Shown: positions 951 through 29,617 of the stretch, in pieces
Layout of the letters: each line of letters starts with the position of its first letter
How positions within the stretch are numbered: the first letter of the stretch is position 1
Source of the DNA: Candidatus Bathyarchaeota archaeon
Lineage (GTDB): Archaea; Thermoproteota; Bathyarchaeia; Bathyarchaeales; Bathycorpusculaceae
Length of the DNA: 64,000 nt
Direction of reading: 5' to 3'
Assembly (NCBI GenBank): GCA_963811105.1
Contig: CAWEPZ010000011.1
Location: 992,001-1,056,000 of the forward strand
Notes under the pieces: generated by a model
The model's database searches: none
What the model was told of the DNA's origin: nothing
Seen by the model: only the letters and a program-made list of their open reading frames with translations
Position numbers and translations under genes: made by a program

Positions 951-2303
951 CTAAGAAGATTTTCTTCTTCTCAAAAGTAGAACTAATCCTGCGACCACAA
1001 CAATCACGATGACAATGCCTAATGCAAGTGCCACAAAGGTTGTATTTGAGCTCGAGACATTCGGAGTTGGAGAAGGAATTACGGATTCGGTTGGTGTTGG
1101 CGAAACAATTGGGCTAAGTGTAGGTGTTGGAGTTGGGGTTGATGTGGGTTTTGGAGTTGGACTTGGAGTTACCGTGTGAGTGGAACTTGGAGAAGGTGAA
1201 GGACTTGGCGTTGGAGAAGGAGTTGGTCGTTGGTAGTTGGCAGTTAGGCGTTGGAGTTGGCGTTGGAGTTGGCGTTGGAGTTGGCGTAGAAGTGATTGGT
1301 TAGCGATTTGTCCTCTGATTTCTCCCCCTGGAAACTGAGTTGTATGCACGTTAACATAGCTCGTTCCATTAATCATCATAGCTATAAGAGTACTAAGAGG
1401 CTGCCCAGCTAAAGACCCGGTGAAGTTGGCTGCATTGAAGTCACCTTCAGCCAGAATTCCTGTGAATGACCCAACTTTTGCCGTAGCTGGAGGAACTGGA
1501 AACAGCAAAACCACGATACCACCATTGACTCCAGCCGCTCCCGCGTGAATATGAGACATAGTTGCATTGACGATGTTTGTAACCTGAACCACATAATGCA
1601 TGGAAAGACCATCTGCGCTAAGTGTAAAGGTAGCTTGACCTGTAGCCGAACTATTCGACGGGGGAACCTCATTATTACCAAGTTGAGCAGTAAAAGTAAT
1701 CGGTGTAACAGCATTACCAATTTGTCCTCTGATTTCTCCCCCTGGAAACTGAGTTGTATGCACATTAACATAGCTCGTTCCATTAATCATCATAGCTATA
1801 AGAGTGCTAAGAGGCTGCCCAGCTAAAGACCCGGTGAAGTTGGCTGCATTGAAGTCACCTTCAGCAAGAATTCCTGTGAATGACCCAACTTTTGCCGTAG
1901 CTGGAGGAACTGGAAACAGCAAAACCACGATACCACCATTGACTCCAGCCGCTCCCGCGTGAATATGAGACATAGTTGCATTGACGATGTTTGTAACCTG
2001 AACCACATAATGCATAGAAAGACCATCTGCGCTAAGCGTAAAGGTAGCTTGACCTGTAGCCGAACTATTCGACGGGGGAACCTCATTATTACCAAGTTGA
2101 GCAGTAAAAGTAATCGGTGCAGCATTAGCGAAGGTTTGGGAAGCAAAATTAATGCTTATAAAAATGCCTGCAAATAAGCCTATCAAAAGCACCATAATCG
2201 ACACTTTTGCCAAGGTTTGCCTTTTGTTTTGTCTGGACAATTCTATATCTTTTTTCCTGAGAGCCAAAAATAAGCTATTAACTGTTTTCATTGAAAAATT
2301 CAC
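951..2303 (-). CDS. Surface protein with two tandem CHRD domains, P/T/S linker and C-terminal TM anchor
   Basis: Two identical ~135-aa domains with CHRD-like motifs ([35 protein letters not shown]), an N-terminal signal/TM segment, and a C-terminal TM helix followed by RRRK. Confidence 0.85.
1306..2119. repeat. Near-perfect 400-bp direct repeat (1306-1705 and 1720-2119; period 414 bp) encoding the two CHRD domains
   Basis: Comparison by eye shows about five substitutions, and the translated domains are identical. Confidence 0.9.
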
Positions 2304-2746: not shown

Positions 2747-5326
2747 CTATGCTTTTTTCCGTATCGCCATCATTATTAAAGCGCCGATTATAATGACTAT
2801 TATTGCTATTGCGATAACGCCTGCAACTATTGTCAGTGTATAGTCCGGTACTGTTATTGCTGGTCCTGTTGAGGTTGTTGCTGTGGGTGTTGTTTCTGCG
2901 CCAACTGAAACAGCAGTTGCTGCTGATGAGCTGCCGTAGGAGTCGTCCCCTGCAAATGTGGCAATTATCCTGTATGTGCCTTCAGTAGGCGGCGTCCAAG
3001 GCATTTCAAAGGTGCCGTAGTATGCACTTGTAGTTACGGTGCCGATTGTGATGGCGTTGTTGTTAGAGTCTATAGCTGTGAGTACAATTGGCACACCAGT
3101 CATCGTAGCATTGTGGTCAACACCGTCGATTGGATGCTGCATATGCAGATATTCCATCTCAGTAGCCATCGAATCCTTAGAGACGCATGGTGTGTTAGGC
3201 TGAGCAGGAGACAAATCAAGCACTGTGCCCTTTATCAAAACGCCTGTTCCTCGCGCAACCACTGTATCGGGTGCTGTCACTGTTGTAGCGGTTTTTCCTC
3301 TGCCGAAGACATACATGTATCCGTCATAAGAGTTTCCTGCAGTCATGTAGCCATCCGCAGTCGCGCCTGGAGCCATGCTGCCAGTAATGTTCCATATGCC
3401 CTGGCCTGTGGTTATGTTGATCGCGTGTAGCTTGTAGCCTCTGTAAATAGGTTGGTTTGGACTGTGCTCAGTGTTATAGGTGTATAGGACTCCGTCTGCG
3501 ATGACAGAAGTTCCGGTAAACCATGCATAGGAATCAACACCTGTTGCATCATTTGCATACGGTTGTTCATACGGGTATTCTGGCACGTATTGATACAGCC
3601 AGGCTACTTTTCCGTTGGTCCAGTTGTAAGCAGCGACTCCATCGTATTGATTTGCAATTATCATTCCTCCGTAGGATTGTACACCGTAGCAGCCGAAGCT
3701 TCCCCATGGCCAACTTGTCAAATCGCTTACCCATAGCTGTTTTCCAGTGTGGAGGTCCCAGCAATACCAATGTCCATCATTTAAGCGCACAGCGAATTTG
3801 CCGTGATCTGCGACTGAGGTGCTTGCACTGAAGAAGCCCCCTTCCCCCGTCGTTGTATCGGTTGTGATGTTGAATAGTAGTTGTCCTGTCGTCATGCTTG
3901 CTGCCATTATGCCTTGACCATATGCCACAACAAAGCCTGAGCCAACTCCTCCTGTACCCGGAGTAGTTATCGCATATGTGTTAACAGCAATAGCTGATTC
4001 ATAGTCAACAGTGCCTAAACTGCTGAATGGCCATGTAACGTTGCCCAGAACTTGAGGCCGCAGGTTGGTAGCACCTCCGAATCCAACGTCTCCTGTTATA
4101 GTCCAGTTGATAAGTCTATATTGAGTGCCAATAGTCTGTACTGTAAAGAATACAGGCCAACCGTCGGGTGTTTGCGCGTAGAATGTGCCGCTCGTGAATG
4201 GAGAAATTGAGATGTTGGCGATTACTGTTCCAAGCCACGGGTCATACCATATCAGTCGACTACTTCCCACGTACATAAGTCTCACAGACAATCCTGAATC
4301 TTCGGCGCTAGCGCCCGCGACAGTCACAGAAGTCCTTGTAATATAATTAATCATTGTTGGCACCTGGGTGACATTTAATTGGTCCCAATAAACTTGCCCA
4401 GTTTGAAGGTCGTAGCATTCCCAAACAGATTGTGCGTGGCCGTCTATCATTTTAGTCATGGTTTGATAGCATCTTCCGTCATAAATTATCGATGGTGTTG
4501 CTCCCCTGCCCGACAAGGATGTCAGCCCCATTGTTCCACCAATTACACCAGCTATAGCGTCTTGCCGCATCCAAACTACGTGTGCAGTTTTAGGTCCTTG
4601 AACATAAGGAGTGAACAAATAGTTGCTCATGTAGGTGTTTGTGTCTGCTGGCCAGCTTGGGCCGCCTCCAACAATGCCTGTAGCAGGATAGTTGCCCAAT
4701 ATCGACCACCATTCCCTGTTTTCAGGTGACACCGGTCTTGTCCAGTAGTCCGTCGGAAGAGGTGAACCTGGCCAACTTTGAGCAAGCGTATTGGTTACAG
4801 TTATAGTATATGGTCCGTCACTGCTTGGTTTGTAGTATACTGAATTGGTAAAGGTCGTGTTGGTTCCAAACTGGAATGATGCTTCGGTCGTGTTGTAAAC
4901 TCCTGCAGGGAAGTAGGCACCGAGGAAGTCAAATTTGATTGTCCAATTGCCAAGCTGATCCGGTACGTAATTGAACCATGCTGATACATCTCCAGGATAG
5001 GAGTTCAGTGGACCGATAGTATCTTTGGTACCGTCTGGCTTTGTGAATGTCACTACGTAAGCATTTTTCATGTATCTGACGACGTGAACTGGAGGTTGAA
5101 GCCAAAGGTTAACAATTACATTTTGTCCAAGCCCAATGGCATGCGGGTTGAAACTCAAGTGAGCGATTGTCTGGAATGATTCATCTGGAGTAACGCCTGT
5201 TGGTAATGGTATTGATCCGTTATCCTGTAGTGGTAAGCTTTGAGCTTGAATAATAGATGGTGTTGTCAACGCAAATAAAGATATCAAGAAAATAGCAATT
5301 ATAGTTTTCTTTGCTTTTCCAAACAT
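2747..5326 (-). CDS. PQQ-like beta-propeller surface protein (paralogue 1), signal peptide plus C-terminal TM anchor
   Basis: Signal peptide, repeated D/N-x-x-TG-x-x-x-W motifs, conserved LPTDYWTRP and GTVLDLSPAQPNTPC blocks, and a C-terminal TM with basic tail. Confidence 0.8.
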   Translation of the reverse strand: MFGKAKKTIIAIFLISLFALTTPSIIQAQSLPLQDNGSIPLPTGVTPDESFQTIAHLSFNPHAIGLGQNVIVNLWLQPPVHVVRYMKNAYVVTFTKPDGTKDTIGPLNSYPGDVSAWFNYVPDQLGNWTIKFDFLGAYFPAGVYNTTEASFQFGTNTTFTNSVYYKPSSDGPYTITVTNTLAQSWPGSPLPTDYWTRPVSPENREWWSILGNYPATGIVGGGPSWPADTNTYMSNYLFTPYVQGPKTAHVVWMRQDAIAGVIGGTMGLTSLSGRGATPSIIYDGRCYQTMTKMIDGHAQSVWECYDLQTGQVYWDQLNVTQVPTMINYITRTSVTVAGASAEDSGLSVRLMYVGSSRLIWYDPWLGTVIANISISPFTSGTFYAQTPDGWPVFFTVQTIGTQYRLINWTITGDVGFGGATNLRPQVLGNVTWPFSSLGTVDYESAIAVNTYAITTPGTGGVGSGFVVAYGQGIMAASMTTGQLLFNITTDTTTGEGGFFSASTSVADHGKFAVRLNDGHWYCWDLHTGKQLWVSDLTSWPWGSFGCYGVQSYGGMIIANQYDGVAAYNWTNGKVAWLYQYVPEYPYEQPYANDATGVDSYAWFTGTSVIADGVLYTYNTEHSPNQPIYRGYKLHAINITTGQGIWNITGSMAPGATADGYMTAGNSYDGYMYVFGRGKTATTVTAPDTVVARGTGVLIKGTVLDLSPAQPNTPCVSKDSMATEMEYLHMQHPIDGVDHNATMTGVPIVLTAIDSNNNAITIGTVTTSAYYGTFEMPWTPPTEGTYRIIATFAGDDSYGSSSAATAVSVGAETTPTATTSTGPAITVPDYTLTIVAGVIAIAIIVIIIGALIMMAIRKKA

Positions 5327-8861: not shown

Positions 8862-10361
8862 ATGACCGCCAACAAAATTCTAGGAAAAACTTTAATAATT
8901 TATCAGTTTAAGACATTCAAGGTGGTTTCTTTTTCAGTGCGTAAAATGAGCAAAAAACAACCTAATCAACTTAATCCACTTGCATTTAAAAAACACCCCT
9001 CTGAGCAATTGGACCACCAAAAAATTGCCCAATTAATACTTTCTCCGTTCATCCACTTGTTCAACATTAATGAATCGACGAAGTGTCTTTTCAATTCTTT
9101 AACTCTAAAGAAAGTGTACTTAACCAATGATAATTACACTAAGCTTTTAATAGATCTAAGTATGGGAAAACGTAGTAGAGACGTCAAAAGTTTAATCGAC
9201 TTGAAGTTTATAGTGCCTCTAGGCTTTGATGCGGAAAAAGTGTTTGACAGCGTCGCAAACAGCTTGCTTAGAAAGAAACCTTCGACCAACCTTGCGTACA
9301 TTTTGGTAACTGACTTCTGCAACTTCAGATGCGGTTACTGCTTCATAGAAAACTCTCTAAAGGGTCCTAGCATAGCAATGTCCAAGGATTTGGCAGATAA
9401 AGTCATTAACGTTTTGATCAACGAAGCAAAGCAAGTCCCAGAATATAGAGTTACATTTTATGGAGGAGAACCCCTAAGCATCAGCGAAATAGTCTTCTAC
9501 ATCATCAAAAAACTTGAGCAAGCATCTAAGGACAAATTCAAATTTTCTTGCGTTACAAACGGAAGTCTAGTAACCGAAGATTTAGCTAGAAAACTTAAAC
9601 AACACAACGTTACCGTAGGATTATCGCTAGACGGATGGGCCAACATTGACAAAAACCGTGTTTTTACCAATGGAAAAGAAACCTTTTACTCAGCACTTAA
9701 AGCGTTAGCTCTCCTAAAAGAAGCCGAGGTAAATGTTGGAATATCATGCACAATTACAAAACAGAACTACAAATACGCAGAGGAAATAGTTGAATTTATC
9801 CAAAAATTGGGAATCAGAACCATTGGTTTTAATTTGTTAACTAGACTCCAAGAGCCAAGTGAATTTGAGGTGCCAGACCCAAAACAACTCGCGCACCACC
9901 TCTTTGAAGCGTACTTAAAAGCAAACGAATTGCAAATGTTTGAAGATCGCATAGGCAATAGACGAGCAAACTATTTTTTCAAAGAAATATTTCATTTGTA
10001 CGATTGCCCCGCGTTTGGTCAACTAATATTCTTTTCGCCAGCTGGAACAGTGGGACCTTGCCATGCGTTCTATCCTTCAGGAAAACATCAAATTCCAATC
10101 AAAGATAATCTGAAAGTCCAAGAAGAACCATTGTTTTACAAATGGCTGGAAATTGGCACACTAAAGAATAAAGATTGCATGAGGTGTCCGGCCCTTGGAA
10201 TCTGCGGCGGAGGCTGCGCTTACGATATTTACGTTAAGACCGGTCAGCTTGGCATTAAAGAAGACTACTTCTGCGCTTTCCAGAATGAAATACTCAAGCT
10301 CCTGCTATCTTACAATTTCCTGATAAAACCTCAAAATAAACTTGGAAAAACGAAAAGTTGA
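8862..10361 (+). CDS. Radical SAM/SPASM domain protein, probable peptide maturase
   Basis: CNFRCGYC (CxxxCxxC), FYGGEP, TNG and SLDG motifs, plus SPASM cysteines (CPA...GPC; CMRCPALGICGGGC...FC). An N-terminal extension of more than 100 aa could be an RRE-like domain. The start may be the ATG at 8946. Confidence 0.9.
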   Translation: MTANKILGKTLIIYQFKTFKVVSFSVRKMSKKQPNQLNPLAFKKHPSEQLDHQKIAQLILSPFIHLFNINESTKCLFNSLTLKKVYLTNDNYTKLLIDLSMGKRSRDVKSLIDLKFIVPLGFDAEKVFDSVANSLLRKKPSTNLAYILVTDFCNFRCGYCFIENSLKGPSIAMSKDLADKVINVLINEAKQVPEYRVTFYGGEPLSISEIVFYIIKKLEQASKDKFKFSCVTNGSLVTEDLARKLKQHNVTVGLSLDGWANIDKNRVFTNGKETFYSALKALALLKEAEVNVGISCTITKQNYKYAEEIVEFIQKLGIRTIGFNLLTRLQEPSEFEVPDPKQLAHHLFEAYLKANELQMFEDRIGNRRANYFFKEIFHLYDCPAFGQLIFFSPAGTVGPCHAFYPSGKHQIPIKDNLKVQEEPLFYKWLEIGTLKNKDCMRCPALGICGGGCAYDIYVKTGQLGIKEDYFCAFQNEILKLLLSYNFLIKPQNKLGKTKS

Positions 10362-10508
10362 AAGATTCACCCGTCTAAACACCAAAAAGCCCATAAAAAG
10401 CCCTTAGCCAAAAGAATCTAAGCAAACAATTGCTAATCAACAATTCAATAAATGAAAAAAAGATACAGACACATCTGACAGTTAACTTCACCCCAGATTG
10501 CCTGTACA

Positions 10509-10555
10509 ATAAATATAAATAATTGACACTTCATACAACAATGTAGTGATTATTT
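10509..10555 (+). promoter_or_regulatory. Putative archaeal promoter/5' leader of the precursor gene, duplicated upstream of the 13099 gene
   Basis: TATA-like aatataaata about 35-45 bp upstream of the TTG. The block 'ataaata...acttcata...gattatttttgtcaaaa' recurs at about 13055-13107. Confidence 0.5.
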
Positions 10556-11014
10556 TTGTCAAAAAATAAATCAAATCCTATAGCGCCCTCCAAAAACCCA
10601 TCTATCGCTCTATCAACAAAAAAATTGACCACAGCACAAAGCAAACGTTTACCAACAATCTTGGCACAAATACCACCTATCGAAAAACTGAATCCGGCCA
10701 TGTATGCAAAGCTGCAGTCAACTATACATGATACCGTAGCAAAAGCTTTGCCGGAATATCAGCAATGGATAAGCAAAACTATTGCATCGGATGGCCAGAC
10801 TCCGACTCCAGTGTGTAGCTCATGCGGAAACGACTGCCCAACACCACTTTGCAGTTCATGTGGAAACGATTGCCCCACACCTCTATGTAGCTCATGCGGA
10901 AACGACTGCCCAACACCATCAGCAACTAGAAAAATTGAAGACATGGTCAATGTGGCTGTCAACCAGGCAATGACCACGGCAATTCGTCAAGCTTTGGAAC
11001 AACAATTCAAATAA
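10556..11014 (+). CDS. Putative multi-core RiPP precursor (leader, 3x CSSCGNDCPTP, follower)
   Basis: All 9 Cys lie in three tandem 12-aa repeats, flanked by an 86-aa Cys-free leader and a ~30-aa helical follower. The gene sits between two radical SAM genes. Confidence 0.75.
   Translation: MSKNKSNPIAPSKNPSIALSTKKLTTAQSKRLPTILAQIPPIEKLNPAMYAKLQSTIHDTVAKALPEYQQWISKTIASDGQTPTPVCSSCGNDCPTPLCSSCGNDCPTPLCSSCGNDCPTPSATRKIEDMVNVAVNQAMTTAIRQALEQQFK
10814..10921 (+). repeat. Three tandem 36-bp units encoding CSSCGNDCPTP(L/S)
   Basis: Units at 10814-10849, 10850-10885 and 10886-10921. Unit 2 differs from unit 1 at 7 positions, all synonymous third positions. Confidence 0.95.
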
Positions 11015-11328: not shown

Positions 11329-12918
11329 ATGCCTGTATTTCTTTGCATCCCTCCAGTTTCTTCGTTGGTTCCTTATCCAGCAATTCCATACTTAACAAGT
11401 AGCCTGAAAGCAAATAATCAAAAGGTAAGTACCTTTGATCTAAACATAAACGCTTTTAATTTAACTCTTTTCCACCAAGGCGTTGATATTAAACCCGGGG
11501 AAATTTTACGTAAGAATAATCATGGAATAAAGGCGAAATGCGCAAGAGTTCCTGAGGCAAATCTTTACTCGACCATGCGAGAAAGCAAAGAAATTTTTGA
11601 ACAAATTATGTTCGAAGAGGCTTCTGATCAATTAAGTTATCCCTATTCGAGTCTACAGTCCAGATATATTATTAGCAAAGAATTAAAGCAGGCAATAATT
11701 TCGGATGTTTGGAAAATTTGTAATAATTGGTTTTTGGAAGTTGCCAATGATTCCAAAGAACAAAGTATTGTAGGATTTCATGTAATAAGTCAAACTGGAT
11801 TGATGTGGAGCATACTTCTTGCACGAAAATTAAAGAAAATTCTGCCCAAAATTTTGACAGTCTTGGGGGGTCCAGCATTCCTCGCATGGGAAGAAGTTCT
11901 CTCAGCCAATCCAGAAATTGACGTAATAGTTCGAGGGGAGGGTGAGGTCACAATTTCTGAGATAGCTAATTTGTATGACGGCAGTTTGGAATCAATAAAA
12001 GGAATCAAGGGAATTTATTACAGAAACGAGAAAGATAAAATTGAAACCAATGCGGATCGCCCATTAATAAAATCTCTTGACGCTTTGCCTTTTCCATATT
12101 ATGGTGATTTACCGTTAAAAGAATATCCTCAGAATAAGTTTGGAATGCCTATAATACCCGTTGTTGGTTCTAGAGGATGTATAGGAAATTGTGTTTTTTG
12201 CGTTGAAAAACGTTTATGGGGTAACACTTATCGGATGCGCTCACCAGAAAACATCGTTTCCGAGTTCAAAAACATTAAAGAAAAATATGGAACTTCTGTT
12301 ATTCGCTTCAATGACAGTTTGATAAATTGTAATATCAAATCTCTAGAAACATTCTGCAATTTATTGATTGAAGATAACATCAGAATGCAATGGATGGGTA
12401 ATGCTCGAATCCGACCTGAAATGACTGATAAATTGCTTGGGAAAATGGGCCAAGCAGGTTGCATAGGATTATGGTATGGCATAGAATCTGGGTCTCAAAG
12501 AATATTGCATAAAATGAAAAAAGGATATAATTTGGAAACCGCTAAAAATGTAATCCACGATACTGCTAGAAACGGCATTCGAGTTCTAATATTTATGATA
12601 GTAGATTTTCCAGGAGAAACACCAAACGATTTTAGACAGTCCGTTGATTTCTTAAAGCAGAATCAAGATTACATTGATCAAGTCAGCATTTCACGCTTTG
12701 GCGTCTTGCATGATTCAGAAATAGCTCTCAGCCCAAAAAAATATGGAATTGAAGTTATTAGAAGAAAAATGGGCGTTAATTACAGTTACATCTATTCACC
12801 TAGACCAGAGAGCAATCGATATGAAATCTTAGATTCAGCCTGGAAGCAATTAAGTATGCTAAAAAAAGCAAACCCAGCTAGAAATAATCGCGCAAAAATA
12901 ATCGTCCCATATTACTAA
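11329..12918 (+). CDS. Cobalamin (B12)-binding radical SAM protein (class B methyltransferase-like)
   Basis: B12-binding domain motifs (VLGGP, RGEGE), SRGCIGNCVFC (CxxxCxxC), RSPENIV.E, GIESGS and FPGET. Confidence 0.9.
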   Translation: MPVFLCIPPVSSLVPYPAIPYLTSSLKANNQKVSTFDLNINAFNLTLFHQGVDIKPGEILRKNNHGIKAKCARVPEANLYSTMRESKEIFEQIMFEEASDQLSYPYSSLQSRYIISKELKQAIISDVWKICNNWFLEVANDSKEQSIVGFHVISQTGLMWSILLARKLKKILPKILTVLGGPAFLAWEEVLSANPEIDVIVRGEGEVTISEIANLYDGSLESIKGIKGIYYRNEKDKIETNADRPLIKSLDALPFPYYGDLPLKEYPQNKFGMPIIPVVGSRGCIGNCVFCVEKRLWGNTYRMRSPENIVSEFKNIKEKYGTSVIRFNDSLINCNIKSLETFCNLLIEDNIRMQWMGNARIRPEMTDKLLGKMGQAGCIGLWYGIESGSQRILHKMKKGYNLETAKNVIHDTARNGIRVLIFMIVDFPGETPNDFRQSVDFLKQNQDYIDQVSISRFGVLHDSEIALSPKKYGIEVIRRKMGVNYSYIYSPRPESNRYEILDSAWKQLSMLKKANPARNNRAKIIVPYY

Positions 12919-13098
12919 ACGAAGTTTCTTGTAAAGAGAATTTCTCCTTTTGCTTTTTTGTCGCTAAAGATGGTGATAGTTAAGGCAAAACGTACAGGAG
13001 ATTTCTGTTAACCACGTTTTTCAAGAGTCTATTAACAATTTTGCAAATCCTCATAAACATAAATAGCGGTACTTCATAAAAATAGAGTGCGATTATTT

Positions 13099-13434
13099 TT
13101 GTCAAAAGATAAATCCGTAAACAAAGCCCTCTCTAAAAAGTCTACAAGAACTGTTCCTAAGAAAAAATCAGATTCAGCTGGTTCAAAAAAAAGATTAACC
13201 AAGAAACAAAATGAACGCCCACATACACTTTTTGAAAAAAATCAACATTTTGAAAAATTGGATCCCGAATCTTATGCGAAACTGCAATCAACAATACATG
13301 AAGTCGTTGAAAAAACGATGCCCGAATACAAAGAATGGCTAAATTCTGCATTTGGCGAAAAAATTATTCCCGATGATTGTTCCAATGCCCGCCCAACACT
13401 TATCCAAAGGTGCCGCGTCTGTCCAAAAAATTGA
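13099..13434 (+). CDS. Paralogue of the RiPP precursor leader, probably the N-terminal part of a frameshifted fusion with the downstream methyltransferase
   Basis: EKLDPESYAKLQSTIHEVVEKTMPEYKEW aligns with EKLNPAMYAKLQSTIHDTVAKALPEYQQW of the 10556 protein. The TTG at 13099 has the same context as the TTG at 10556. Confidence 0.7.
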   Translation: MSKDKSVNKALSKKSTRTVPKKKSDSAGSKKRLTKKQNERPHTLFEKNQHFEKLDPESYAKLQSTIHEVVEKTMPEYKEWLNSAFGEKIIPDDCSNARPTLIQRCRVCPKN

Positions 13435-14272
13435 CGATATTGTAGTTGCTGCTTTCAACAAAGCTATGAAAGCAGTACGTCAAGCTTCGGAAGAAACTGA
13501 GCAAACGGAAATTATGGAAAAATGGTTCAAAAAAAAATTTTTTGACGACGTTTCTGACATACGACCTGAAAGCAGAAACTATTACAAACATTGCGTACAC
13601 AATTTCGTTACTCAATTTTTCTCCAAAGAAAAAATAGCTGGAAAAAGAATCCTCGACTTCGGATGTGGACCAGGATACTATTCCACGATTTTGGCCCAAC
13701 GCGGAGCAGACGTAACTGGAATTGACAGAAGTGCATTTCTTATTTACAAAGCAAACGAACTCAAACAAAAACTAGGACTTAAGAATATAGAGTTTTTTCA
13801 AGAAGATTTTCTTGATTTTGAGACAAATGCAAGGCCCAAAGAGTTTGATTATATCATAGCGATAGACACAATTGTGAGTTTTGACTTTTCCAGACAGAAG
13901 CATAACCATGAGGATTTCACTAAGGCATTGAGCAAAATCAGCAGAATTCTGAAAGATCAAGGTAGATTTTTTATAATTGAGGCGCATCCTTTTTTCGGTC
14001 AATTTGCTAAAGGAATAAAATTCTCAAGCGAAGGACATTTTCATGGTCGTTTATCTCATTATAAAATAGAATATAAGCGTAAAGATAATCCTAATCATTG
14101 GTTTACCCTTGACGAAATGACGAAGGCTCTTAATGAGAACTGTTTGGCAATTTGCAGGATTTATGAGCCTGATCCAAGTGTTGAATTGGAAAAAGAAAAC
14201 GCCCAATTATTCAAGTTTTTCCTGAAGTATCCACACATGATTGTATATGAAATATGCAAAGTGAGAAACTAA
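13352..14272 (+). CDS. Class I SAM-dependent methyltransferase carrying the precursor-like follower at its N-terminus
   Basis: Motif I ILDFGCGPGY, VTGID, FDYI and LKDQGRF. The N-terminal KIDDIVVAAFNKAMKAVRQASE matches the precursor follower KIEDMVNVAVNQAMTTAIRQALE. Confidence 0.85.
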   Translation: MAKKLFPMIVPMPAQHLSKGAASVQKIDDIVVAAFNKAMKAVRQASEETEQTEIMEKWFKKKFFDDVSDIRPESRNYYKHCVHNFVTQFFSKEKIAGKRILDFGCGPGYYSTILAQRGADVTGIDRSAFLIYKANELKQKLGLKNIEFFQEDFLDFETNARPKEFDYIIAIDTIVSFDFSRQKHNHEDFTKALSKISRILKDQGRFFIIEAHPFFGQFAKGIKFSSEGHFHGRLSHYKIEYKRKDNPNHWFTLDEMTKALNENCLAICRIYEPDPSVELEKENAQLFKFFLKYPHMIVYEICKVRN

Positions 14273-16055: not shown

Positions 16056-18698
16056 TTATCGTTTTCTGAGTATCAGAATGGCTGTTGCGACTGAGAGGAT
16101 AACTACGATTATTATTGCGATTACTCCGGCGACTATGGTCATTGTGTAGTCTGGTGTTACGGATTGTGAAGCTGCTTGAGAAGGTGCCAATGTTGCTGCT
16201 GGACTAACTGCTATTGCTGTTGCTGCTCCTGAACTGCCATATGAGTCGTCTCCTGCAAATGAGGCAACAATTTTGTATGTGCCTTCTGTTGGTGGGGTCC
16301 AAGCCATCTCAAATGTGCCGTAGTATGCGCTTGAAGTTACTGTTCCGATGTTGATGACTTTGCCAGATGAGTCTATAGCTGTTAGTGTTACTGGTATGCC
16401 AGTCATGGTAACGTTGTGGTACATTCCATCTATTGGAATTTGCATGTGTAGGTATTCCATTTGAGTCGACATTGAGTCTGCGGAAACGCATGGCGTACCT
16501 GGTTGGGCTGGTGATTGATCCATAACTGTTCCTCGTATTAGCACTTGGGTTCCCAATGGTGTAGCGGTGTCGGGTGCCGTCACTGTGGTTTGTGTTAAGC
16601 CTTTGCCAAAGACGTCTAGGTAGCCGTCGTATTCATCGAGGAATGCGAGGTAGCCGTCTGATATTGCGCCTTCGAAGTAGCGTGAGCCTGGTACTCCTTG
16701 ACCCATGGTTATATTCCATATGCCTGCGCCTGTGGTAGCGTTAATGCAGAAGAGTCTCCAGCCTCTTGTAATTGGCTCGCTTGGCGTATGTTCACAGTTG
16801 AAGGTGAAGAGTTTTCCATCAGCCACGTAGCCTGAGCTGTGCCAGGAATAGTTTCCGCCATATGGTGTTTCAAATGGAGGTGCGGGTGCTGTGAAGGTCC
16901 AATCGATCTTGCCTGTGATCCAGTTGATCGCGTGGACTCCTGCGTAGTCATTGTCGAATATGTATCCGTAAGCTGATTGCACATCGTAAGCTCCGAAGAC
17001 TCCCCATGGCCATTCTGACAGCGGGCTCGTCCAAACCAGGTTCCCAGTCTTTAAGTCCCAGCAATCCCAGTCGCCGCCTAACAAGCGGACAGCTGCTTTG
17101 CCGTGATCGACAACCATTGGGGTTCCAAAGGTTTGTCCCCAGCCTGAACTAGTGTCTGTGGTTTTGTTCCAGAGGAGTTGTCCAGTGTATATGTTTGCTG
17201 CTTGTATGAATATGCCAACGTTTACTCCTAAGCCGGCTGAACTGATTGCGCCTGTGGTGACAGCGATTCCTGATTCATAATCAACTGTTCCCAGACTGCT
17301 AAATGGCCAAGAAATGTTGCCCCATATTCTTGCGGTGAAATTGTCAACAACTGTTTGCGCGCCTCCGCCGTGAACTTGCTCAGAGCCTGCGTTATTTGCT
17401 ATGGTCCAGTTGATTAAACGGTAGGTGACAGATGATCCTGAGCCGATTGTTTGTATGCTCAAGACCCATGGGTCTGCGTAGAATGTGCCGGTAGATACTC
17501 CGGAGGGGACTCCTGTGAAGTTTGAAACAACTGTGCCAGTTAAGGGGTCGTACTTGATTACTCGACCTGAATTTGAGCCTGACGCTCCAGTTATCGCTAC
17601 AAAGTATACTGATTCGCCTACTCTTGCTTCTGCGCCTGGAACTTCTGCGCCGCCTCGCTCATAGGTGATTATGGTGGGTATTGTTTCTCCAGTGGCTACT
17701 GGGCGTTCCCAGTATATCTTGCCTGTTTGCAGATCATAGCATCTCCATTCGTTGACTGCGCTAACTGTAGTAGGGTATTGCCATGTGCCGTTGATGTATA
17801 CTGGTTGTGTGGGTTCGCTTATGACTTCATAGCATCTTCCTGAGTAGATGATGGTTGGGTATCCACTTCCCGTTAATCCTCCGGCTGTCCAAGAGAGTTG
17901 TCCTGCTGGTCCACCGATGAGTCCGGCGATGAATGTTGGTCTTTGCCAGACTATGTGTGCTGTGTTTGGTGCTTGGACGTAGGGTGTGAATCTGTAGTTG
18001 CTCATGTATTTGTTGGTGTTTGCTGGCCAGTAGGTGCTTCCTCCAACAACGCCTGTTGGAGGCCAATTGCCTAATATTGGCCACCATTCTCTGTTGAAGG
18101 ATTCAGCTGGTCGTGACCAGTAATCTGTTGGTAATGCTGCTGGAGGCCAAGATGCTACCGCGTTTTGTTGCACTGTTACTGATACTTGAGGTGTTGTTGC
18201 TGGTTTGTAGTAGGCTGAGTCTAGAAATGCAGAACCGGATGTTCCGTTTTCGACGACACTTCCTTGGAGGTAGTATCCTGCGGGGTAGTATTGACCTAGG
18301 AAGTTAAATTGGAATTTGTAGGTACCGGCTGTGTCTGGGGTGTAGGGGAACCATGCTGTTGAGTCGCCTGCGTAGGATGATATTGGGCCTACAGTGGTGG
18401 TTGTTCCATCTGGTTTAGTGATTGTGACTGTGAATGCGTTTACTAAGTCTCTGTTTATGTTGATTGGAGGTTGAAGCCAGATGTTTACAAGTAACTCTTG
18501 CCCAACTCCGATTGGGTTTGGAGTGACATCAAGATAAGCAGTAGGAGTCACAGTAATGCTTGCAGTTACTCCGGCTGGTAAAGGTCCTGCTACTGGTTGG
18601 CTTAATGCTTTTACTGTCATTTTTGTCGTGGTTGCTATTACAGAAGCCATCAAAATGATTATGATAATTGCAGTTATCTTTTCACGATTTATTTTCAT
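16056..18698 (-). CDS. PQQ-like beta-propeller surface protein (paralogue 2)
   Basis: Same architecture and conserved blocks as 2747-5326 (LPTDYWSRP, NREWW, GTVMDQSPAQPGTPC, MEYLHMQ, C-terminal TM). Confidence 0.8.
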   Translation of the reverse strand: MKINREKITAIIIIILMASVIATTTKMTVKALSQPVAGPLPAGVTASITVTPTAYLDVTPNPIGVGQELLVNIWLQPPININRDLVNAFTVTITKPDGTTTTVGPISSYAGDSTAWFPYTPDTAGTYKFQFNFLGQYYPAGYYLQGSVVENGTSGSAFLDSAYYKPATTPQVSVTVQQNAVASWPPAALPTDYWSRPAESFNREWWPILGNWPPTGVVGGSTYWPANTNKYMSNYRFTPYVQAPNTAHIVWQRPTFIAGLIGGPAGQLSWTAGGLTGSGYPTIIYSGRCYEVISEPTQPVYINGTWQYPTTVSAVNEWRCYDLQTGKIYWERPVATGETIPTIITYERGGAEVPGAEARVGESVYFVAITGASGSNSGRVIKYDPLTGTVVSNFTGVPSGVSTGTFYADPWVLSIQTIGSGSSVTYRLINWTIANNAGSEQVHGGGAQTVVDNFTARIWGNISWPFSSLGTVDYESGIAVTTGAISSAGLGVNVGIFIQAANIYTGQLLWNKTTDTSSGWGQTFGTPMVVDHGKAAVRLLGGDWDCWDLKTGNLVWTSPLSEWPWGVFGAYDVQSAYGYIFDNDYAGVHAINWITGKIDWTFTAPAPPFETPYGGNYSWHSSGYVADGKLFTFNCEHTPSEPITRGWRLFCINATTGAGIWNITMGQGVPGSRYFEGAISDGYLAFLDEYDGYLDVFGKGLTQTTVTAPDTATPLGTQVLIRGTVMDQSPAQPGTPCVSADSMSTQMEYLHMQIPIDGMYHNVTMTGIPVTLTAIDSSGKVINIGTVTSSAYYGTFEMAWTPPTEGTYKIVASFAGDDSYGSSGAATAIAVSPAATLAPSQAASQSVTPDYTMTIVAGVIAIIIVVILSVATAILILRKR

Positions 18699-18934: not shown

Positions 18935-19669
18935 TCACTGGATAGAGTCTCTTTGATTAAGCAGTTTTTGAATTTGCTGCAATATATCTTCAGACGAAGA
19001 AGCCTTGAAATGTGCAGGTTCGCGAACTCCCGGTCCGACTTTGGCGTACTTTGCTCCGATTTGTGTCATTCTCTGCGTTAGGCGTAGCTCGGGATATACT
19101 TCGTCTATTACTGACAGCAAGACGGCTTGCTCGGAAGATATGATCTGCCCACCTTCGAAAAACTGAGCAGGCTCGATTGCCGACCATATCATCTCTATCG
19201 TTTTCGCTGAAAGAGCCCCTTGCAACGGTTGATCAATTAGACTTGCAGCTTGATGCGCGGGTTCAATCCATTCATTTGAGAGTTTTAGTTTGAGCGCACT
19301 TAACCACAGCAGATAAATATTGAAAGTTCCTGCAACAACTGTAATCAGTTTCTCTTCATTGATGCCTTTGAGGACTGGCATGAGTTCACTCTCAAACACG
19401 GTACCTTTAAGGTTTTCAGCACCCAAGCTAACTGATTTGACCATTCCGCCATCTACTTCGATTTTGCAAGGCAAGGTGGAGGCAACAACAAAGCCAATTT
19501 GTTTGGATGCACGGTCAAAGGCTGCGTCTATCTTTGTCTGGTATTTCTCTTTAATCAACTGGTAAATCGCAAGCAGGTCTTCTCTGTATTTGATAATCTT
19601 CGGATGCGCGGGTTCCACCCAAGGTCTCTGCTTTCTCAGCATTGTTTCATCTATTCTTTTTTCATCCAA
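18935..19669 (-). CDS. Hypothetical protein with four EPA(H/Q) motifs; candidate substrate of the adjacent B12 radical SAM
   Basis: PWVEPAHP, EWIEPAHQ, AIEPAQFF and GVREPAHF. Starts 13 bp after the rSAM stop, with a ggggtg RBS-like sequence. Confidence 0.7.
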   Translation of the reverse strand: MDEKRIDETMLRKQRPWVEPAHPKIIKYREDLLAIYQLIKEKYQTKIDAAFDRASKQIGFVVASTLPCKIEVDGGMVKSVSLGAENLKGTVFESELMPVLKGINEEKLITVVAGTFNIYLLWLSALKLKLSNEWIEPAHQAASLIDQPLQGALSAKTIEMIWSAIEPAQFFEGGQIISSEQAVLLSVIDEVYPELRLTQRMTQIGAKYAKVGPGVREPAHFKASSSEDILQQIQKLLNQRDSIQ

Positions 19670-19682
19670 TTTTTCACCCCCT

Positions 19683-21428
19683 TCACAAATTTCTTATTCT
19701 CTTCTTGAATTCGTCATATGGAAGGTAGTTTTGTCCAATTGCAATCATGTTTAGTATCTCGTCAGGGTTCCTTCCTTGAAAAGAATATGAAGTTTCTAAT
19801 CCCACATTGGAACCAGCCGTTATCAAATTCGACGATTCCATAACATCTTCGTCATTCAGAATAGCCTGTGTATCTAATCCCCCGTTTCTATAAGCTTTTT
19901 CAAGGTAGTTGATTATCCGATCGCCTTTCACAAGCAGAACCGCACTTCTTCTGTCGATTCTCTGTCTCATTTCTCTTGCAAAACGATGAATTTTTAGCTC
20001 ATCCTCAACGTTGACCTCAGAGACAAAATCAAAAATACCAGACAATTCTTCAAATGTGTCCAGATTAGTCTCTTTTATGAAATTTCGAACCGCTGCCCTC
20101 AGGCTCTGCGAGAGAATTTCAGGATGGAAACGCCGAAGAATTTGATAGTAAAAATCAACCTGCATGTTAAAGTAGTGCAGACCATTGTCATTGAAATTCC
20201 TGTCGAAAAAGGCATAATTCGCGATCTTGTGGAATACTTCGACCTTTGGGTCTTTTATGCGGTAGTCAAATCCGAAATAGTCGCCGAGCAAGCGTCCCTG
20301 CGTGCGTAGTTTCTCTTCGAGCCCTGTTCCTGCGTAAGCTTCTGCCCGGCAGAAATTAAAGGGATTTTCTATATGGCGTTCCATAAAACGAAGGTTGATG
20401 AGTAAATCGTTCATGGTTGCATCGAGTTCAAACATCAAGAAGTTGAAAGCAACATGAACATCGAAGTCATTGAGAATCTGCAGCGCATTAAGAATGTCCC
20501 CGATTGTTTGTTTGCGGTTTAGGTTTCTCAAGCCGTTCTCAGAAGCATTTTCAACACCCAAGAATACTCGGAAAAGGCCAAGCTCATCAAGAACGGATAT
20601 AGATTCGCGGGTAATGCTGTCAGGTCGAGCCTTCACGGCGATTGCGATTTTTTCAACTCCATTTCTTTTCAGCTCGTCCCGTAATTCCTTGAAGCGTTGC
20701 AGGGTTTGCTGGTTGTCGGCAAGAAAGAAGTTGTCATCGTGGAAGTTGAAAATTCGAATGCCGTATTCAAAATAAAGTTGCTTCATCTCGGCAACGATGT
20801 TTTTTATGCTGCGGACTCTGAACTTCTTGCCTCCTTGGTGTTCATACCATGCGTTTATGCTACAGAAAGCACAGTTCCGCCAGCATCCCCTACTGCTCAG
20901 TATGCCCGCAATCGGCTTGTCGAAGTACTTGTTGAATGTTGTTCTTTTCGGAAATGGCAGTGCGTCCAGGTTTTCCTGCTTAATGCCAGGTGAACATCTT
21001 ATTGTTCCTTCAGTCCCCCTAAAAGCTAAGCCGGGAACATCTTCCAGTCTGTCCAAACTCTGAGCCAGCTTACAAAGCAGCAGTTCGCCTTCGCCCAGGC
21101 CGACCGAACTAAAAGCAGGAAAGTCCTTTAGCAGTCTTTCGTAGTTGAAAGAAGCAAAATGCCCTCCAGCAACTATATGTCCCTTGTAACCTGCGTCCCT
21201 TAGCCTCTGTGCCAGGCTGCAAAATTCTCTTGCTCTGCCTGTAAACACCATGGACAATGCCGTTATTTGCGGGTCTGTCTGAATGATTTTTTCTACTACT
21301 GAGGAAATCTCGGCTTGAGAGTTGAAAGGTACGATTTGTGTCTCTATGCCGACTTGCTCTAATGAAGATGCCATGTACCGAATGCCGATGTTTTCCTCTA
21401 ATTCTGCGCCAACAAGGGCAACTTTCAC
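19683..21428 (-). CDS. Cobalamin-binding radical SAM protein
   Basis: B12-binding domain (ENIGIRY, AGGHF, GEGE), SSRGCWRNCAFC, FHDDNF and LGVEN. Likely GTG start at 21428 after a G-rich RBS-like sequence (the ORF track starts at 21461). Confidence 0.9.
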   Translation of the reverse strand: MKVALVGAELEENIGIRYMASSLEQVGIETQIVPFNSQAEISSVVEKIIQTDPQITALSMVFTGRAREFCSLAQRLRDAGYKGHIVAGGHFASFNYERLLKDFPAFSSVGLGEGELLLCKLAQSLDRLEDVPGLAFRGTEGTIRCSPGIKQENLDALPFPKRTTFNKYFDKPIAGILSSRGCWRNCAFCSINAWYEHQGGKKFRVRSIKNIVAEMKQLYFEYGIRIFNFHDDNFFLADNQQTLQRFKELRDELKRNGVEKIAIAVKARPDSITRESISVLDELGLFRVFLGVENASENGLRNLNRKQTIGDILNALQILNDFDVHVAFNFLMFELDATMNDLLINLRFMERHIENPFNFCRAEAYAGTGLEEKLRTQGRLLGDYFGFDYRIKDPKVEVFHKIANYAFFDRNFNDNGLHYFNMQVDFYYQILRRFHPEILSQSLRAAVRNFIKETNLDTFEELSGIFDFVSEVNVEDELKIHRFAREMRQRIDRRSAVLLVKGDRIINYLEKAYRNGGLDTQAILNDEDVMESSNLITAGSNVGLETSYSFQGRNPDEILNMIAIGQNYLPYDEFKKRIRNL

Positions 21429-21757
21429 CTTATCCCCCCAATCAAAGTGTCTAAAGTGCAAGGGACAAATGACAGTTCCTCGAGAACAAAGATTGCGTTA
21501 TAAGAATTTTCCGCCGGGTTATTTGTAGATCTCGCGATATTCGACTTTCTGCACATCAACAGGTCTCTCCACAGATAGTAAACATTAGAAATTTCGCCAA
21601 ATCAAAAACCTCACATAAATGAGTGACCGCAAATTGCTTTTCCATATTATCTCTTATTTCATTAGTCATTTGATTAAGGCGTCTCCGAAAATCATCTTTG
21701 CCTCATCGCGTATTTAATAATATGTTGTTGCATTTGCACTGCAACTAACTTCAGTTC

Positions 21758-24878: not shown

Positions 24879-27497
24879 ATGAAAAACAAATTTTCGACAA
24901 AACTGACAACAATCACTCTGATTCTATTGATGGCTTCAATTGCAGTATCAACAATTCCAATCCATCCAGTTCAAGCTCAAGAAGCATCGCACGGTGGTTC
25001 ACCTGGAGGAGGATATGAAGGACCAACAACAGTTCCAGCCGGTCAGACTGCTGACTACACGATTCAACCCATTGCTTTCCTGAGCGTTTCACCCGCCACA
25101 ATCGGTATCGGTCAAACGCTCCTGGTCAACGTGTGGATTACCTTCCCCTCAGGTGAGGGCAAATATATGGTAGGCTACACGGTGCACATCACTAAGCCAG
25201 ACGGTTCAACAGACGATGTTCCTCTGAAATCGTACGTCGCGGACGGTACAGCCTATTTCACCTACGTGCCTGATCAAACGGGTCAATGGACGTTCTTGTT
25301 CACTTTCGCAGGCGAATATTTCCCAGCAGGATACTATGTAAGCGGACAATACTCCACCAGCCGAACAGGCCAGTTTGCAAACGCGATTTTTAACCCTTCT
25401 GACTACGTTGCACCAGCCACTTCCCAAGTGAGAACTTTAACAGTGCAGAGCGATCTTGTTTCATCTTGGCAGTCACCGCTTCCAACAGACTACTGGACGC
25501 GCCCAATTGAACCGAACAACAGAGAGTGGTCTGCTATCGCAGGAAACTTCCCATTCACCGAAGATATAGGCAGTGCAGAAAGTTGGAGTGATGAATGGTA
25601 CGGTCCCTTCATCACGGCTCCAAATACACCACACATTGTCTGGTTCAACCAAGTAAACGTAGCAGGCATAACTGGAGGAGAAACCGGTCTACAATCCACG
25701 CTTAGTGGTCCCGGAACTCCCAGCGTTATCTATCAGGGAAGATGCTACCAGACCATGACCATTTCCATCAACGGCGTTCCAACGAGTTGCGCAGTATGCT
25801 ATAACCTGCAAACAGGAAAACAATACTACGCCATACCGGGCGGAATCACACCAACACGCATAGCCTACTGGCCACCTGCTGTTGCAGGCGCTACAGGAAC
25901 TGTTCCAGGCGAGGCAGCAGACATTGGTTGGACAATTGACCTCTTCACAATAAGCGGCAGCTTCCTAATCAAAATCAACCCAAACACAGGGGCAGTAAGC
26001 TCGAACATTACACTTCCATCTGGCTTAGGCACCGCTGACATGTTCTACAGGGACGGCTACTACTTGAGCTACCGATCAGTCAGCACCGATAACATGACCC
26101 CCGCCGCCAACGTAACGGTCGCTAGGTCTACAACAGGATACCTAGTAAACTGGACAGAACAAGGCACTTCAACCAACTTCACAACAAGGATACGGAGCAA
26201 CATAACCGTAACAATACCAAACAGCTTGCGAACACTCTATGAAGTTGGTGCCTACGGAGCATTAGGCGCATATGACCCAGACACAGGCATAACCGTCATC
26301 CAGTCCAGGTTCATCTACGGAGGCTTCTACGGATCAAACTTCTGGGCAGTAAACCTAGTAACGGGACAAACGATATGGAACGTAACGACACCTGTTTCCG
26401 CGATCGAAGACGCTTACAGACCTACCAACGCATGGTGCAGACATGGAAGATACATAGCTGAAATGGAGCGAGGATACTTACAAGCATACGATGAATTCAC
26501 CGGTAAATTGCTCTGGACATCATCACCTGGAATTGACGCCTCGATGGGTGATTACCCATGGGGAGAATTTTACCAATACGATGAAGCAGCATACCAGGGC
26601 GTAATCTACGATGTGCAATACACAGGCATCTTCGCTTTCGATGAAACCAACGGCAACATACTCTGGCACTACGTTGATCCAGCCATCCCATTCGAAACTC
26701 CATATAACAGCGCTAATGGTTCAATCCCTTGCTATTCAATCTCAAGCATCAGAATTGCTGACGGAAAAATCTACGCGATGAACAGTGAACACTCACCCTC
26801 ACTACCAGCAACTCGAGGCTGGGGATTAATCTGCCTTAACGTCACCACCGGGGAGAAACTTTGGAAAATTAGCGGTACACAAATGAGCGCAGGTCCTGCA
26901 TCAGATGGCTACATGGTAACCAGCAGCAGCTATGACGGAACACAATACGTGCTAGGCAAAGGTCAAAGCCAAACAACAGTAACAGCACCAGTAAACACAG
27001 TAGCAAAAGACGGTAGCGTGCTAATCCAAGGCACAGTCTTAGACATGTCTCCCGCCCAGCCAAACACAGCATGCATCTCAGACAACACAATTGATACATG
27101 GATGGATTACCTGCATATGCAAATGCCAGTAGATGGACTATACCACAACATAACCGTCACAGGCGTACCAGTACTACTCGTAGCAACAGACTCTAACAAC
27201 AACAACATCAACGTAGGCACAGCAACAAGCGACACAACCGGCAGCTACCAAATCGCATGGACACCACCACACGAAGGCCTATACAAGATCACAGCAATCT
27301 TTTCAGGTACAAACTCATACGGAAGCTCTATTGCAGCAACAGGCCTATTAGTCGGACCAGCACCAACACCTATATCAACCCCAGTGGCAGCGTTACCGAT
27401 TGATACCACAAATACTATTGTAGGCATGGGCATCGCCATAATCATAGTAATAGTGATTATTGGCGCGTTAATCCTCATTCTCATGCGACGAAAGTAA
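24879..27497 (+). CDS. PQQ-like beta-propeller surface protein (paralogue 3)
   Basis: LPTDYWTRP, NNREW, GTVLDMSPAQPNTAC and DYLHMQ blocks, with signal peptide and C-terminal TM. Confidence 0.8.
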   Translation: MKNKFSTKLTTITLILLMASIAVSTIPIHPVQAQEASHGGSPGGGYEGPTTVPAGQTADYTIQPIAFLSVSPATIGIGQTLLVNVWITFPSGEGKYMVGYTVHITKPDGSTDDVPLKSYVADGTAYFTYVPDQTGQWTFLFTFAGEYFPAGYYVSGQYSTSRTGQFANAIFNPSDYVAPATSQVRTLTVQSDLVSSWQSPLPTDYWTRPIEPNNREWSAIAGNFPFTEDIGSAESWSDEWYGPFITAPNTPHIVWFNQVNVAGITGGETGLQSTLSGPGTPSVIYQGRCYQTMTISINGVPTSCAVCYNLQTGKQYYAIPGGITPTRIAYWPPAVAGATGTVPGEAADIGWTIDLFTISGSFLIKINPNTGAVSSNITLPSGLGTADMFYRDGYYLSYRSVSTDNMTPAANVTVARSTTGYLVNWTEQGTSTNFTTRIRSNITVTIPNSLRTLYEVGAYGALGAYDPDTGITVIQSRFIYGGFYGSNFWAVNLVTGQTIWNVTTPVSAIEDAYRPTNAWCRHGRYIAEMERGYLQAYDEFTGKLLWTSSPGIDASMGDYPWGEFYQYDEAAYQGVIYDVQYTGIFAFDETNGNILWHYVDPAIPFETPYNSANGSIPCYSISSIRIADGKIYAMNSEHSPSLPATRGWGLICLNVTTGEKLWKISGTQMSAGPASDGYMVTSSSYDGTQYVLGKGQSQTTVTAPVNTVAKDGSVLIQGTVLDMSPAQPNTACISDNTIDTWMDYLHMQMPVDGLYHNITVTGVPVLLVATDSNNNNINVGTATSDTTGSYQIAWTPPHEGLYKITAIFSGTNSYGSSIAATGLLVGPAPTPISTPVAALPIDTTNTIVGMGIAIIIVIVIIGALILILMRRK

Positions 27498-28284: not shown

Positions 28285-29617
28285 CTATGTGTCTTGTGGT
28301 ATGTATACTGCGTATCCTCTTGGGGGTGCATAGAATTCGCCCCGCCCATCTGGTTGTGTCCACTTTTCAATTGGGGCTTCAACATTGTTTTGATGGCTTC
28401 CCCAAGTAACAGCTTTGAACTTCACATTTTTCCATTTTGTTTTGACCCATTTTCCACTCCAAGCGTTTCCAAAGTTGTTGAGGACAAAAATTAAGCCAGT
28501 TTGAGTTGGTGTGCCATTTCTTTGCATGATGTAGACGTTGTCATCAGCATATAGTATTGTGGTTGTGCCTCCAGCGTTTTGCTCATGCATTTTTACTGGG
28601 CCGCTATTCCGTTTTCGCTGTTTTCTTTGCCCAGTTGAAAGTTGAAGAAATCTTGCCAAAAAACACAAGGGTAGCCTTCATGGGTTAGAATAAAAGCGTA
28701 GGCGAGCATTTTATCGTTGACAATGGGATTGCTGAGTGCTATGTCGTGATTTTCTACAAATGTAACAGCTTCTGAAGGTCTGTCTTTTACGAGGGTTCCA
28801 GATATTGCAAGGTTTGTTAAACTGTAACCATAAGAATCACAAACACCTTTCAATCTGTCTCGCAGCGGAAAATCGAAGGCGCCTACAGGGTTATCTGACC
28901 ACTCGTTAGTCGCATTAAGCCAATCATTGATAACGCGGTCACTATCCCAACATTCCCCGACCCCATAAAGCTTAAAATACTGTCCATTCCGTTTTATTCT
29001 TAACTCCTGGATTGAGGTAGCTGTCCAACTTCCATAACCTTTGACAAAGTCGAAGCGAAAACCATCAAAACCTATTGTCTCTACAAGCCAACGGACAATT
29101 TTTAATATGGGTCCATAAACGTAGGGGTTTCGGTGGCACAGATCAGGCATGTCTCCGAACGTTTCACCATCCCATGTTTCATAACTTGAAGGGTGGAAGC
29201 ATTCCCAGTTATGCTTGAACTCTTGACTTTTAGGGTTGAATTTTGTCCACCGCACCATTTGGTCTATTGGGTTAGTCTCTTCTTTGTCGCCGCCGCTGTT
29301 ATGGTTAATGACAAGGTCAGCGTATGCTTGCAAGCCAGCTTCATGAGCAGCTGCGATTAATGAAACTAACTCATCTTTTGAACCAAACCACGTGCGTATT
29401 GAGCCCTTTTGATCAAACTCACCCAAGTCGTAATAATCATACGTCATATCCCATTGAAGGATTGTTAGCTGCTTTACTCGTCAGGAGGCAACCAAAGACC
29501 TGTAAACCCAACCTCTTTCAATGTTGGAATTTTACTCTTAACATGTTCCCACCAATCATAATCTCTTTTTTCCAACTTGGGACAATTCCAATAGAATGCT
29601 TGAAACATTACGCCCAT
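28285..29617 (-). pseudogene. GH13 alpha-amylase, broken by at least three frameshifts (pseudogene or sequencing errors)
   Basis: MGVMFQAFYW...GFTGLWLPP, MGYD/YDYYDLGEFDQKG, ADLVINH, DGFRFDFVKG, VGECW and FVENHD motifs. Breaks near 29480, 29443 and 28597. Confidence 0.85.

Follow-up and report, generated by a model that had tools for sequence, protein, structure and literature searches.

In the window, by which we mean the whole 64,000-nucleotide stretch of DNA that was analysed, the gene of a small cysteine-repeat protein stands in a cassette with genes for a SPASM radical SAM enzyme, a B12-binding radical SAM enzyme and a class I methyltransferase. The minimal unit of this cassette is the SPASM enzyme together with the repeat protein. 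From the sequences and their conservation we consider it reasonably probable that the repeat protein is the precursor of a thioether-cross-linked (ranthionine-type), methylated, RiPP-like protein: stapling of each unit, guided by an RRE-like domain, would be followed by methylation, and the core would be carried as a loop on a leader–follower hairpin without cutting at Pro-Thr-Pro (PTP). The features of the cassette are the following:

8862..10361 (+): SPASM radical SAM enzyme (seven SPASM cysteines) that also has an RRE-like domain at its N-terminus, likely a thioether-forming maturase (Pfam Radical_SAM; profile comparison)
10507-10521 (+): AT-rich promoter-like box 5' of the TTG start of the cysteine-repeat gene
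10546-10550 (+): GTGAT, a ribosome-site-like motif 5' of the same start
10556-11014 (+): cysteine-repeat protein of 152 amino acids with a TTG start, likely the substrate; family searches gave no Pfam or NCBIfam match at cut-off
10673..10789 (+): leader, with a conserved motif and a long helix predicted in aa 40-78 (conserved columns; helix model)
10799..10918 (+): core made of three repeat units (aa 82-121) in the register (C/T)-P-T-P-(V/L)-C-S-S-C-G-N-D, with a closing C-P-T-P, predicted to be disordered
10919..11011 (+): helix of the follower, aa 122-152, in which every fourth residue is Ala
11329..12918 (+): B12-binding radical SAM enzyme, likely a C-methyltransferase, optional in the family (Pfam B12-binding and Radical_SAM)
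13087..14272 (+): class I SAM methyltransferase whose N-terminus copies the leader and follower of the precursor around a decayed core (homologous fusions; profile match)

An earlier reading made from the sequence only had described three 36-bp units, the second differing from the first at seven sites, all synonymous, with all nine cysteines inside the repeats. Our comparison of the ORF and its units agrees on both points. The three copies of CSSCGNDCP are encoded at 10814-10849, 10850-10885 and 10886-10921, tandem repeat detection by TRF recovers the array at 10817-10918 (period 36, 2.8 copies), and the cysteines occupy positions 87, 90, 94, 99, 102, 106, 111, 114 and 118. Units 2 and 1 differ at six sites in the first 33 nt and in a Leu codon (CTT/CTA); seven synonymous changes out of seven have a P of about 5e-5 under neutrality (8.7 synonymous and 27.3 non-synonymous sites, with transition bias ignored). 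Over 52 units in 35 genes from the fetched loci, CSSCGNDCP units differ at 3.6 of nine codons within genes and at 3.9-4.3 between genes: synonymous sites are near saturation while the unit peptide is fixed, and the unit peptide is therefore under purifying selection. The sequence-only reading had ascribed the sameness of the cores to such selection, which holds for the peptide. The DNA of units 1 and 3, however, is identical over 33 nt, and this points to recent copying or conversion rather than selection alone. Selection for scrambling codons between units is an unneeded explanation, since the differences within genes are no larger than those between genes.

Motifs similar to the AT-rich box and GTGAT, a putative TATA element and a putative Shine-Dalgarno sequence, precede the precursor start in the 25 listed of 29 loci, and similar motifs also stand 5' of the methyltransferase gene. 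A scan for bacterial promoters gave 20 against 15.6 +/- 3.7 by chance, that is, not above chance.

A protein search recovered 130 homologues of the repeat protein, 120 of them listed, nearly all from Bathyarchaeia where the host is named. Of the 29 genome loci, 28 are titled Bathyarchaeota; one contig sits in a bin classed as bacterial. The gene is present in 22 of 120 genomes of the genus and was not found in 400 other genomes drawn from the phylum, 25 of which belong to the same family. An unfiltered HMMER search of 1.84 billion representatives returned 17 matches, all with this leader or core and none from a remote family; the ESM Atlas held no usable match.

The recurrent gene order is SPASM radical SAM enzyme, precursor, B12 radical SAM enzyme, (second precursor), methyltransferase. 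Of the 29 loci, 25 have the SPASM gene within 7 kb of the precursor, 18 have the B12 enzyme and 21 have the methyltransferase (one a remnant), and the flanking genes differ. The link to the neighbouring radical SAM enzyme, already drawn by the sequence-only reading, proves to be strict: the same 22 of the 120 genus genomes hold both the precursor and an orthologue of the SPASM enzyme, and the other 98 hold neither. The B12 enzyme (19 genomes) and the methyltransferase (20) occur within those 22 only. These genomes are kin, so that the counts show linkage and not independent events. No other ORF family of at least 100 aa recurs in more than 4 of 30 loci, and the cassette hence includes neither a protease nor a transporter. 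No second small conserved substrate gene was seen in these 30 loci, where the clustering covered ORFs of 100 aa and above.

Outside the cassette, the window encodes three paralogous surface proteins of 860-880 aa with a signal peptide and a C-terminal anchor, at 2747-5326 (-), 16056-18698 (-) and 24879-27497 (+); their relatives recur close to several precursor loci. Two near-identical 414-bp copies at 1306-2119 lie inside the ORF 951-2303 (-), which encodes a membrane-anchored protein with a duplicated domain.

The leader and follower are kept throughout the collected homologues, and the number of units varies from one to five: of the 120 listed proteins, 5 have one CxxC unit, 65 have two, 38 have three, 10 have four and 1 has five (one was unparsed). 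Mean column conservation over 97 rows is 0.85 in the leader helix (aa 40-72), 0.83 in the last unit and 0.69 in the follower, where A142 is invariant and A138 and A146 are nearly so among the 97 aligned sequences. The family register is C-P-x-x-x-C-S-S-C-G-N-D closed by C-P-T-P; in the window's gene the first Cys of this register is replaced by Thr82. Homologues carry 4-15 cysteines, and their counts follow 3n+1 (7 in 56 of 120, 10 in 29 of 120), so that one Cys is common to neighbouring units. Of 278 unit windows, 270 have Asn at position 6 and 275 have Asp or Gln at position 7; position 5 tolerates G, S, D, A and E. The leader frequently closes with an acidic pair ahead of the first Cys, and the precursor has no signal or membrane stretch (maximum hydropathy over 15 residues, 0.73).

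The same leader also carries quite different cores. W-type precursors (L053:6920-7501 and L054:6920-7501) join it to 11-residue CWSCGTGP units and a long follower; they adjoin the SPASM gene only, and the enzymes there are 67-69% identical. Two proteins (P0293, P0304) have CxCxxCP units on this leader. In an expanded cluster of genome G488 (L058:5159-11809) it is followed by an irregular Cys-rich core. Nearby are two additional radical SAM genes, of which one is broken in the assembly, a pair of methyltransferases and a protein with weak similarity to PqqD (E 0.016). The window's own genome contains a second precursor (G000:C10:53232-53729 (-)) with four units, PVE-type spacers and a long follower that is apparently truncated. 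The CxxC element is the sole one common to all core types. With one leader carrying different Cys-rich cores, the family has the leader/core modularity of RiPP precursors, and nothing else speaks as strongly against a fixed metalloprotein domain. Since Asn6 and Asp7 are missing from W-type cores, the acceptors proposed below are not universal in the family; only CxxC is.

The AlphaFold2 model of the precursor alone bears out helices on both sides of the core (residues 26-37, 47-78 and 121-151, pLDDT about 76-93; about 90 for 47-78 and 76-91 for the follower helix). The core itself (aa 83-116) has a pLDDT below 50 and is predicted to be disordered, with no strands anywhere in this metal-free model. 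Foldseek found no match to the model at E 0.001, and VIA returned generic helical hairpins with a best Z of 5.8. The sequence-only reading had offered, from the likeness to a ferredoxin motif, a metal- or Fe-S-binding protein as its alternative. We reject the ferredoxin identity on its motif: CxxCxxCxxxCP occurs in 0 of the 120 listed homologues, whose actual spacing is C-x4-C-x2-C-x3-CP. The varying Cys number and the low-confidence core, modelled metal-free, may point the same way.

The SPASM enzyme resembles maturases of thioether-containing peptides. Its best NCBIfam matches are the FibroRumin maturase (TIGR04136, 180 bits against a cut-off of 400) and PapB (NF047865, 150 against 340), followed by TIGR03974 (99 against 425) and the CrpC model TIGR04463 (90 against 525); none of the NCBIfam maturase families is reached at its curated cut-off. 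The seven SPASM cysteines (C382, C400, C439, C442, C448, C452 and C471) are invariant among 62 aligned sequences and conserved in 53 of 54 orthologues, a pattern that would leave an open site on auxiliary cluster I. The best single-sequence match in the PDB is CteB (5WGG, E 4e-22). The family profile scores slightly higher with 8VPO (192 bits) than with CteB (183 bits) and aligns with 8VPO over its whole length, including N-terminal residues 4-105. The available text of PMC10878394 describes the N-terminal region of 8VPO as an RRE, and the profile match to it suggests an RRE-like domain in the SPASM enzyme. At the six active-site-proximal positions, as defined in the accessible part of PMC10288494, the enzyme reads F-Y-V-S-H-A and CteB F-F-T-S-H-Q, with three of six identical. 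Ser at position 4 and His at position 5 are as in CteB and unlike the sulfatase maturase or 8VPO; among 54 orthologues, 18 have Q at position 5. The aligned stretch does not contain GYW, the motif of cyclopropyl synthases. Taken together, the sequence features make thioether chemistry likely. A second SPASM gene in the same genome (C10:18438-19838 (+), 68% identical) lies 35 kb from the second precursor. More distant relatives of the enzyme (34-47% identical) are fused to GNAT acetyltransferase domains (P0226, P0229, P0230, P0235, P0236 and P0240).

The B12 enzyme likewise scores below the NCBIfam cut-offs (ApyD, 159 against 750 bits; TIGR03975, 148 against 282). Elsewhere in the window, a second B12 radical SAM gene at 19683-21461 (-) has directly downstream of it a gene (18935-19669 (-)) for a 244-aa protein with four spaced EPAH/EPAQ motifs and no Pfam or NCBIfam match, also present at locus L051; these two genes look like a separate peptide-modification pair.

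The N-terminus of the methyltransferase, a feature that the sequence-only reading does not bring up, matches the precursor family with a profile probability of 99.9% (E 6.6e-34). In a design common to 43 homologues, the precursor leader is followed by a short linker, the follower helix and then the class I methyltransferase. The linker holds at most two cysteines in all 44 fusions, and a core remnant is retained in P0156-P0161. Conservation is 0.89 both in the leader copy and in the catalytic domain, an argument that the copy is in use. The upstream motifs that are common to both genes suggest that the whole precursor gene was duplicated and then fused to the methyltransferase. A tree of the core-less scaffold (44 rows, 68 columns) does not separate single from multiple origin of this copy. 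The methyltransferase model has a pLDDT of 54, and its fold search matches are generic class I enzymes only.

In the window the methyltransferase gene is split into ORFs 13087-13434 and 13352-14272. The two are read as one gene because an uninterrupted 394-aa member of its 90% cluster, P0165, shows 92% identity across the initial 107 aa; the split is best described by one surplus base near 13380-13420. Loci L028 and L051 break near the same junction, and this raised the possibility of a programmed frameshift, which we judge unlikely: in P0165 and P0166, both members of that 90% cluster, the frame runs on without a break, two metagenome loci with the junction-side pattern either keep the frame intact (L057) or lie on a contig as long as that of the intact P0156 (L056), no common slippery run was seen, and frame breaks are frequent in these assemblies. 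The surplus base would be either an assembly error or a recent mutation. Further ORFs appear by eye to be split or truncated (28285-29447 (-), amylase-like; 36447-38210 (-), glycosyltransferase-like; 61571-62089 (+), ribose-phosphate-isomerase-like), which suggests more frame errors in the assembly.

These features can be arranged into a working scheme. The leader helix would bind the RRE-like domain of the SPASM enzyme, and the open site of its seven-cysteine SPASM cluster would bind a substrate thiol. The enzyme would then join Cys sulfurs of each 12-residue unit to nearby carbons, forming ranthionine-type thioether staples. The most likely link is from Cys4 to Asp/Gln7 (the C-x-x-D/Q motif), possibly with one from Cys1 to the near-invariant Asn6; Asp or Gln stands at Cys+3 in 275 of 278 units, and Asn and Asp are plausible acceptors. 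The two methyltransferases would subsequently add methyl groups to the stapled precursor, and the class I enzyme would dock through its own core-less copy of the hairpin. The leader and follower helices may fold back on each other as that hairpin, with the core shown as a loop. The units would not be cut at PTP: one stapled segment would stay in the protein or leave it whole. That the leftover thiols bind metal is a guess. Against stapling stand the NCBIfam maturase cut-offs that are not reached, the agreement with CteB at only three of six proximity residues, the higher profile score of 8VPO, the W-type cores, the zinc-knuckle-like CxxCG and the lack of a conserved transporter or protease. 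A bolder version is tentative and rather doubtful. The precursor would be a helical hairpin with a swappable Cys loop, the methyltransferase would have captured a core-less copy of its substrate and would pair like helices with like instead of using an RRE, and the product would be a stapled, methylated, metal-handling protein of the cytoplasm, not a secreted peptide.

A classical multi-cassette RiPP, the reading proposed from the sequence only, would have its units stapled and then cut at PTP into several identical small peptides. Part of that reading stands: leader and follower are kept, the units are identical and vary in number, selection acts on them, and the SPASM enzyme is linked. Repeat precursors of the TigB type are indeed proposed, in the text available of PMC10878394, to yield several identical products. 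The acidic pair before the first Cys and the terminal PTP, conserved in 102 of 106 scored proteins, also suit cutting. The unit sequence, on the other hand, is not hypervariable, being nearly as conserved as the leader. PTP was taken to be a cleavage spacer, including one before the first core, and it is present there; it lies inside the family unit, however, because most homologues have a Cys just before the first PTP. Among 168 internal spacers, PTP accounts for 53, PVE for 48, PTQ for 44, PTE for 12 and others for 11, so that the invariant part is Cys-Pro. This spread, the Cys that adjacent units have in common and the finding that any protease or exporter family recurs in 4 of 30 loci at most argue against cutting at PTP, although a protease encoded elsewhere may exist. 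We therefore regard release of several peptides as unlikely.

Distinctly unlikely, in our view, is an unmodified protein that binds Zn, Cu or Fe-S in the manner of a metallothionein or zinc knuckle and serves as a chaperone or scaffold for neighbouring enzymes that act elsewhere. CxxCG resembles a zinc-knuckle pattern, CxxC recurs in all core types, a metal-free model of such a protein would appear disordered as the core does, and co-occurrence suits a partner as well as a substrate. Weak matches to the Cys-rich region of the DNA polymerase II large subunit were obtained for 13 of 30 members (best E 0.001). Yet Fer4 matches only 1 of 30 (E 0.058), the ferredoxin motif does not occur in the 120, and no zinc-ribbon family is among the listed matches of the 30 members. 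An odd unit number in 44 of the 120 listed homologues suits paired knuckles poorly, and the partner enzyme has an RRE-like domain with no other small conserved substrate gene in sight in the 30 loci. The repeat protein could also be a substrate of SPASM chemistry other than ranthionine formation: it might form a sactionine (sulfur to alpha carbon, for example of Gly/Ser5), join the two Cys of CxxC to each other or involve no sulfur at all. The variable position 5, the proximity residues that differ from CteB, the W-type cores without N/D acceptors and the top profile match in the PDB, 8VPO, a C-C forming enzyme, would fit. His and Ser at proximity positions 5 and 4, the missing GYW motif and the near-constant D/Q at Cys+3 do not, and we consider such chemistry very unlikely.

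Characterised radical-SAM peptide modification is rare in archaea, and with only four genes the cassette is a compact case, open to testing, from an archaeal lineage that is uncultured. Its natural variants (one to five units; D/Q, W-type and irregular cores; presence or absence of each methyltransferase) map the substrate rules directly, and the W-type precursors are a natural test of the acceptor residue. Should the core-less copy be a docking handle, it would be a natural and portable means of directing enzymes to precursors, and stapled loops could be mounted on the leader–follower hairpin as a scaffold. The part of PMC13692751 available to us presents it as unusual for a large protein to be cross-linked by thioethers.

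No description of the Bathyarchaeia cassette was found in the open-access literature; paywalled papers or the compendium tables of PMC10288494 could hold one. Several known systems resemble it in part. The ranthipeptide maturases CteB, PapB and QhpD combine an RRE, a radical SAM domain and a SPASM domain, and CteB is the best single-sequence match in the PDB; their family cut-offs are not reached, and the Bathyarchaeia precursor is larger and helical, with an internal repeat core and two added methyltransferases. The cyclopropyl synthases TigE and TvgB act on repeat precursors with identical units according to the accessible text of PMC10878394, and 8VPO is the top profile match, whereas the Bathyarchaeia enzyme has no GYW motif and its core is Cys-rich. 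For a cyanobactin-like system, the recognition sequence between cores is not conserved (PTP in 53 of 168) and the 30 loci have no conserved protease. The type V split borosin RceM/RceA is loosely similar, with a multi-core precursor and a precursor-type helical domain predicted inside the methyltransferase in the portion seen of 10.1101/2021.12.24.474128. The Bathyarchaeia enzyme, in contrast, is of the class I Rossmann type, its extra domain can be recognised as copied from the precursor in that very cassette, with a remnant of the core, and no borosin-type model is among its listed Pfam, NCBIfam or PDB matches.

The closest parallel is the Crp system (CrpA, CrpB, CrpC) of Methanococcus voltae, in which, according to the available text of PMC13692751, a seven-cysteine SPASM enzyme installs ranthionines in a repeat protein. 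That text calls C-X-X-Q/D suggestive of thioether formation and localises the links to C-x-x-X motifs. The words 'Bathy', 'cobalamin' and 'follower' are absent from its main text, as are 'Bathyarch' and the unit sequence from its text supplements. CrpA ends in ten 17-residue repeats, whereas the Bathyarchaeia protein has one to five units of 12 between two helices, the second copy of the substrate is here fused to a methyltransferase, and the SPASM enzyme falls far below the CrpC model (90 against 525 bits). Both systems are archaeal and place a repeat-rich Cys protein with C-x-x-D/Q motifs beside a radical SAM enzyme with an RRE and a seven-cysteine SPASM domain. Both also have a second gene with the substrate's N-terminus, a protease not identified and a suspicion of metal binding (PMC13692751, in its available text). 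Though not homologous to CrpA/CrpC by the tests applied, the Bathyarchaeia cassette would, by this analogy, work most like it.
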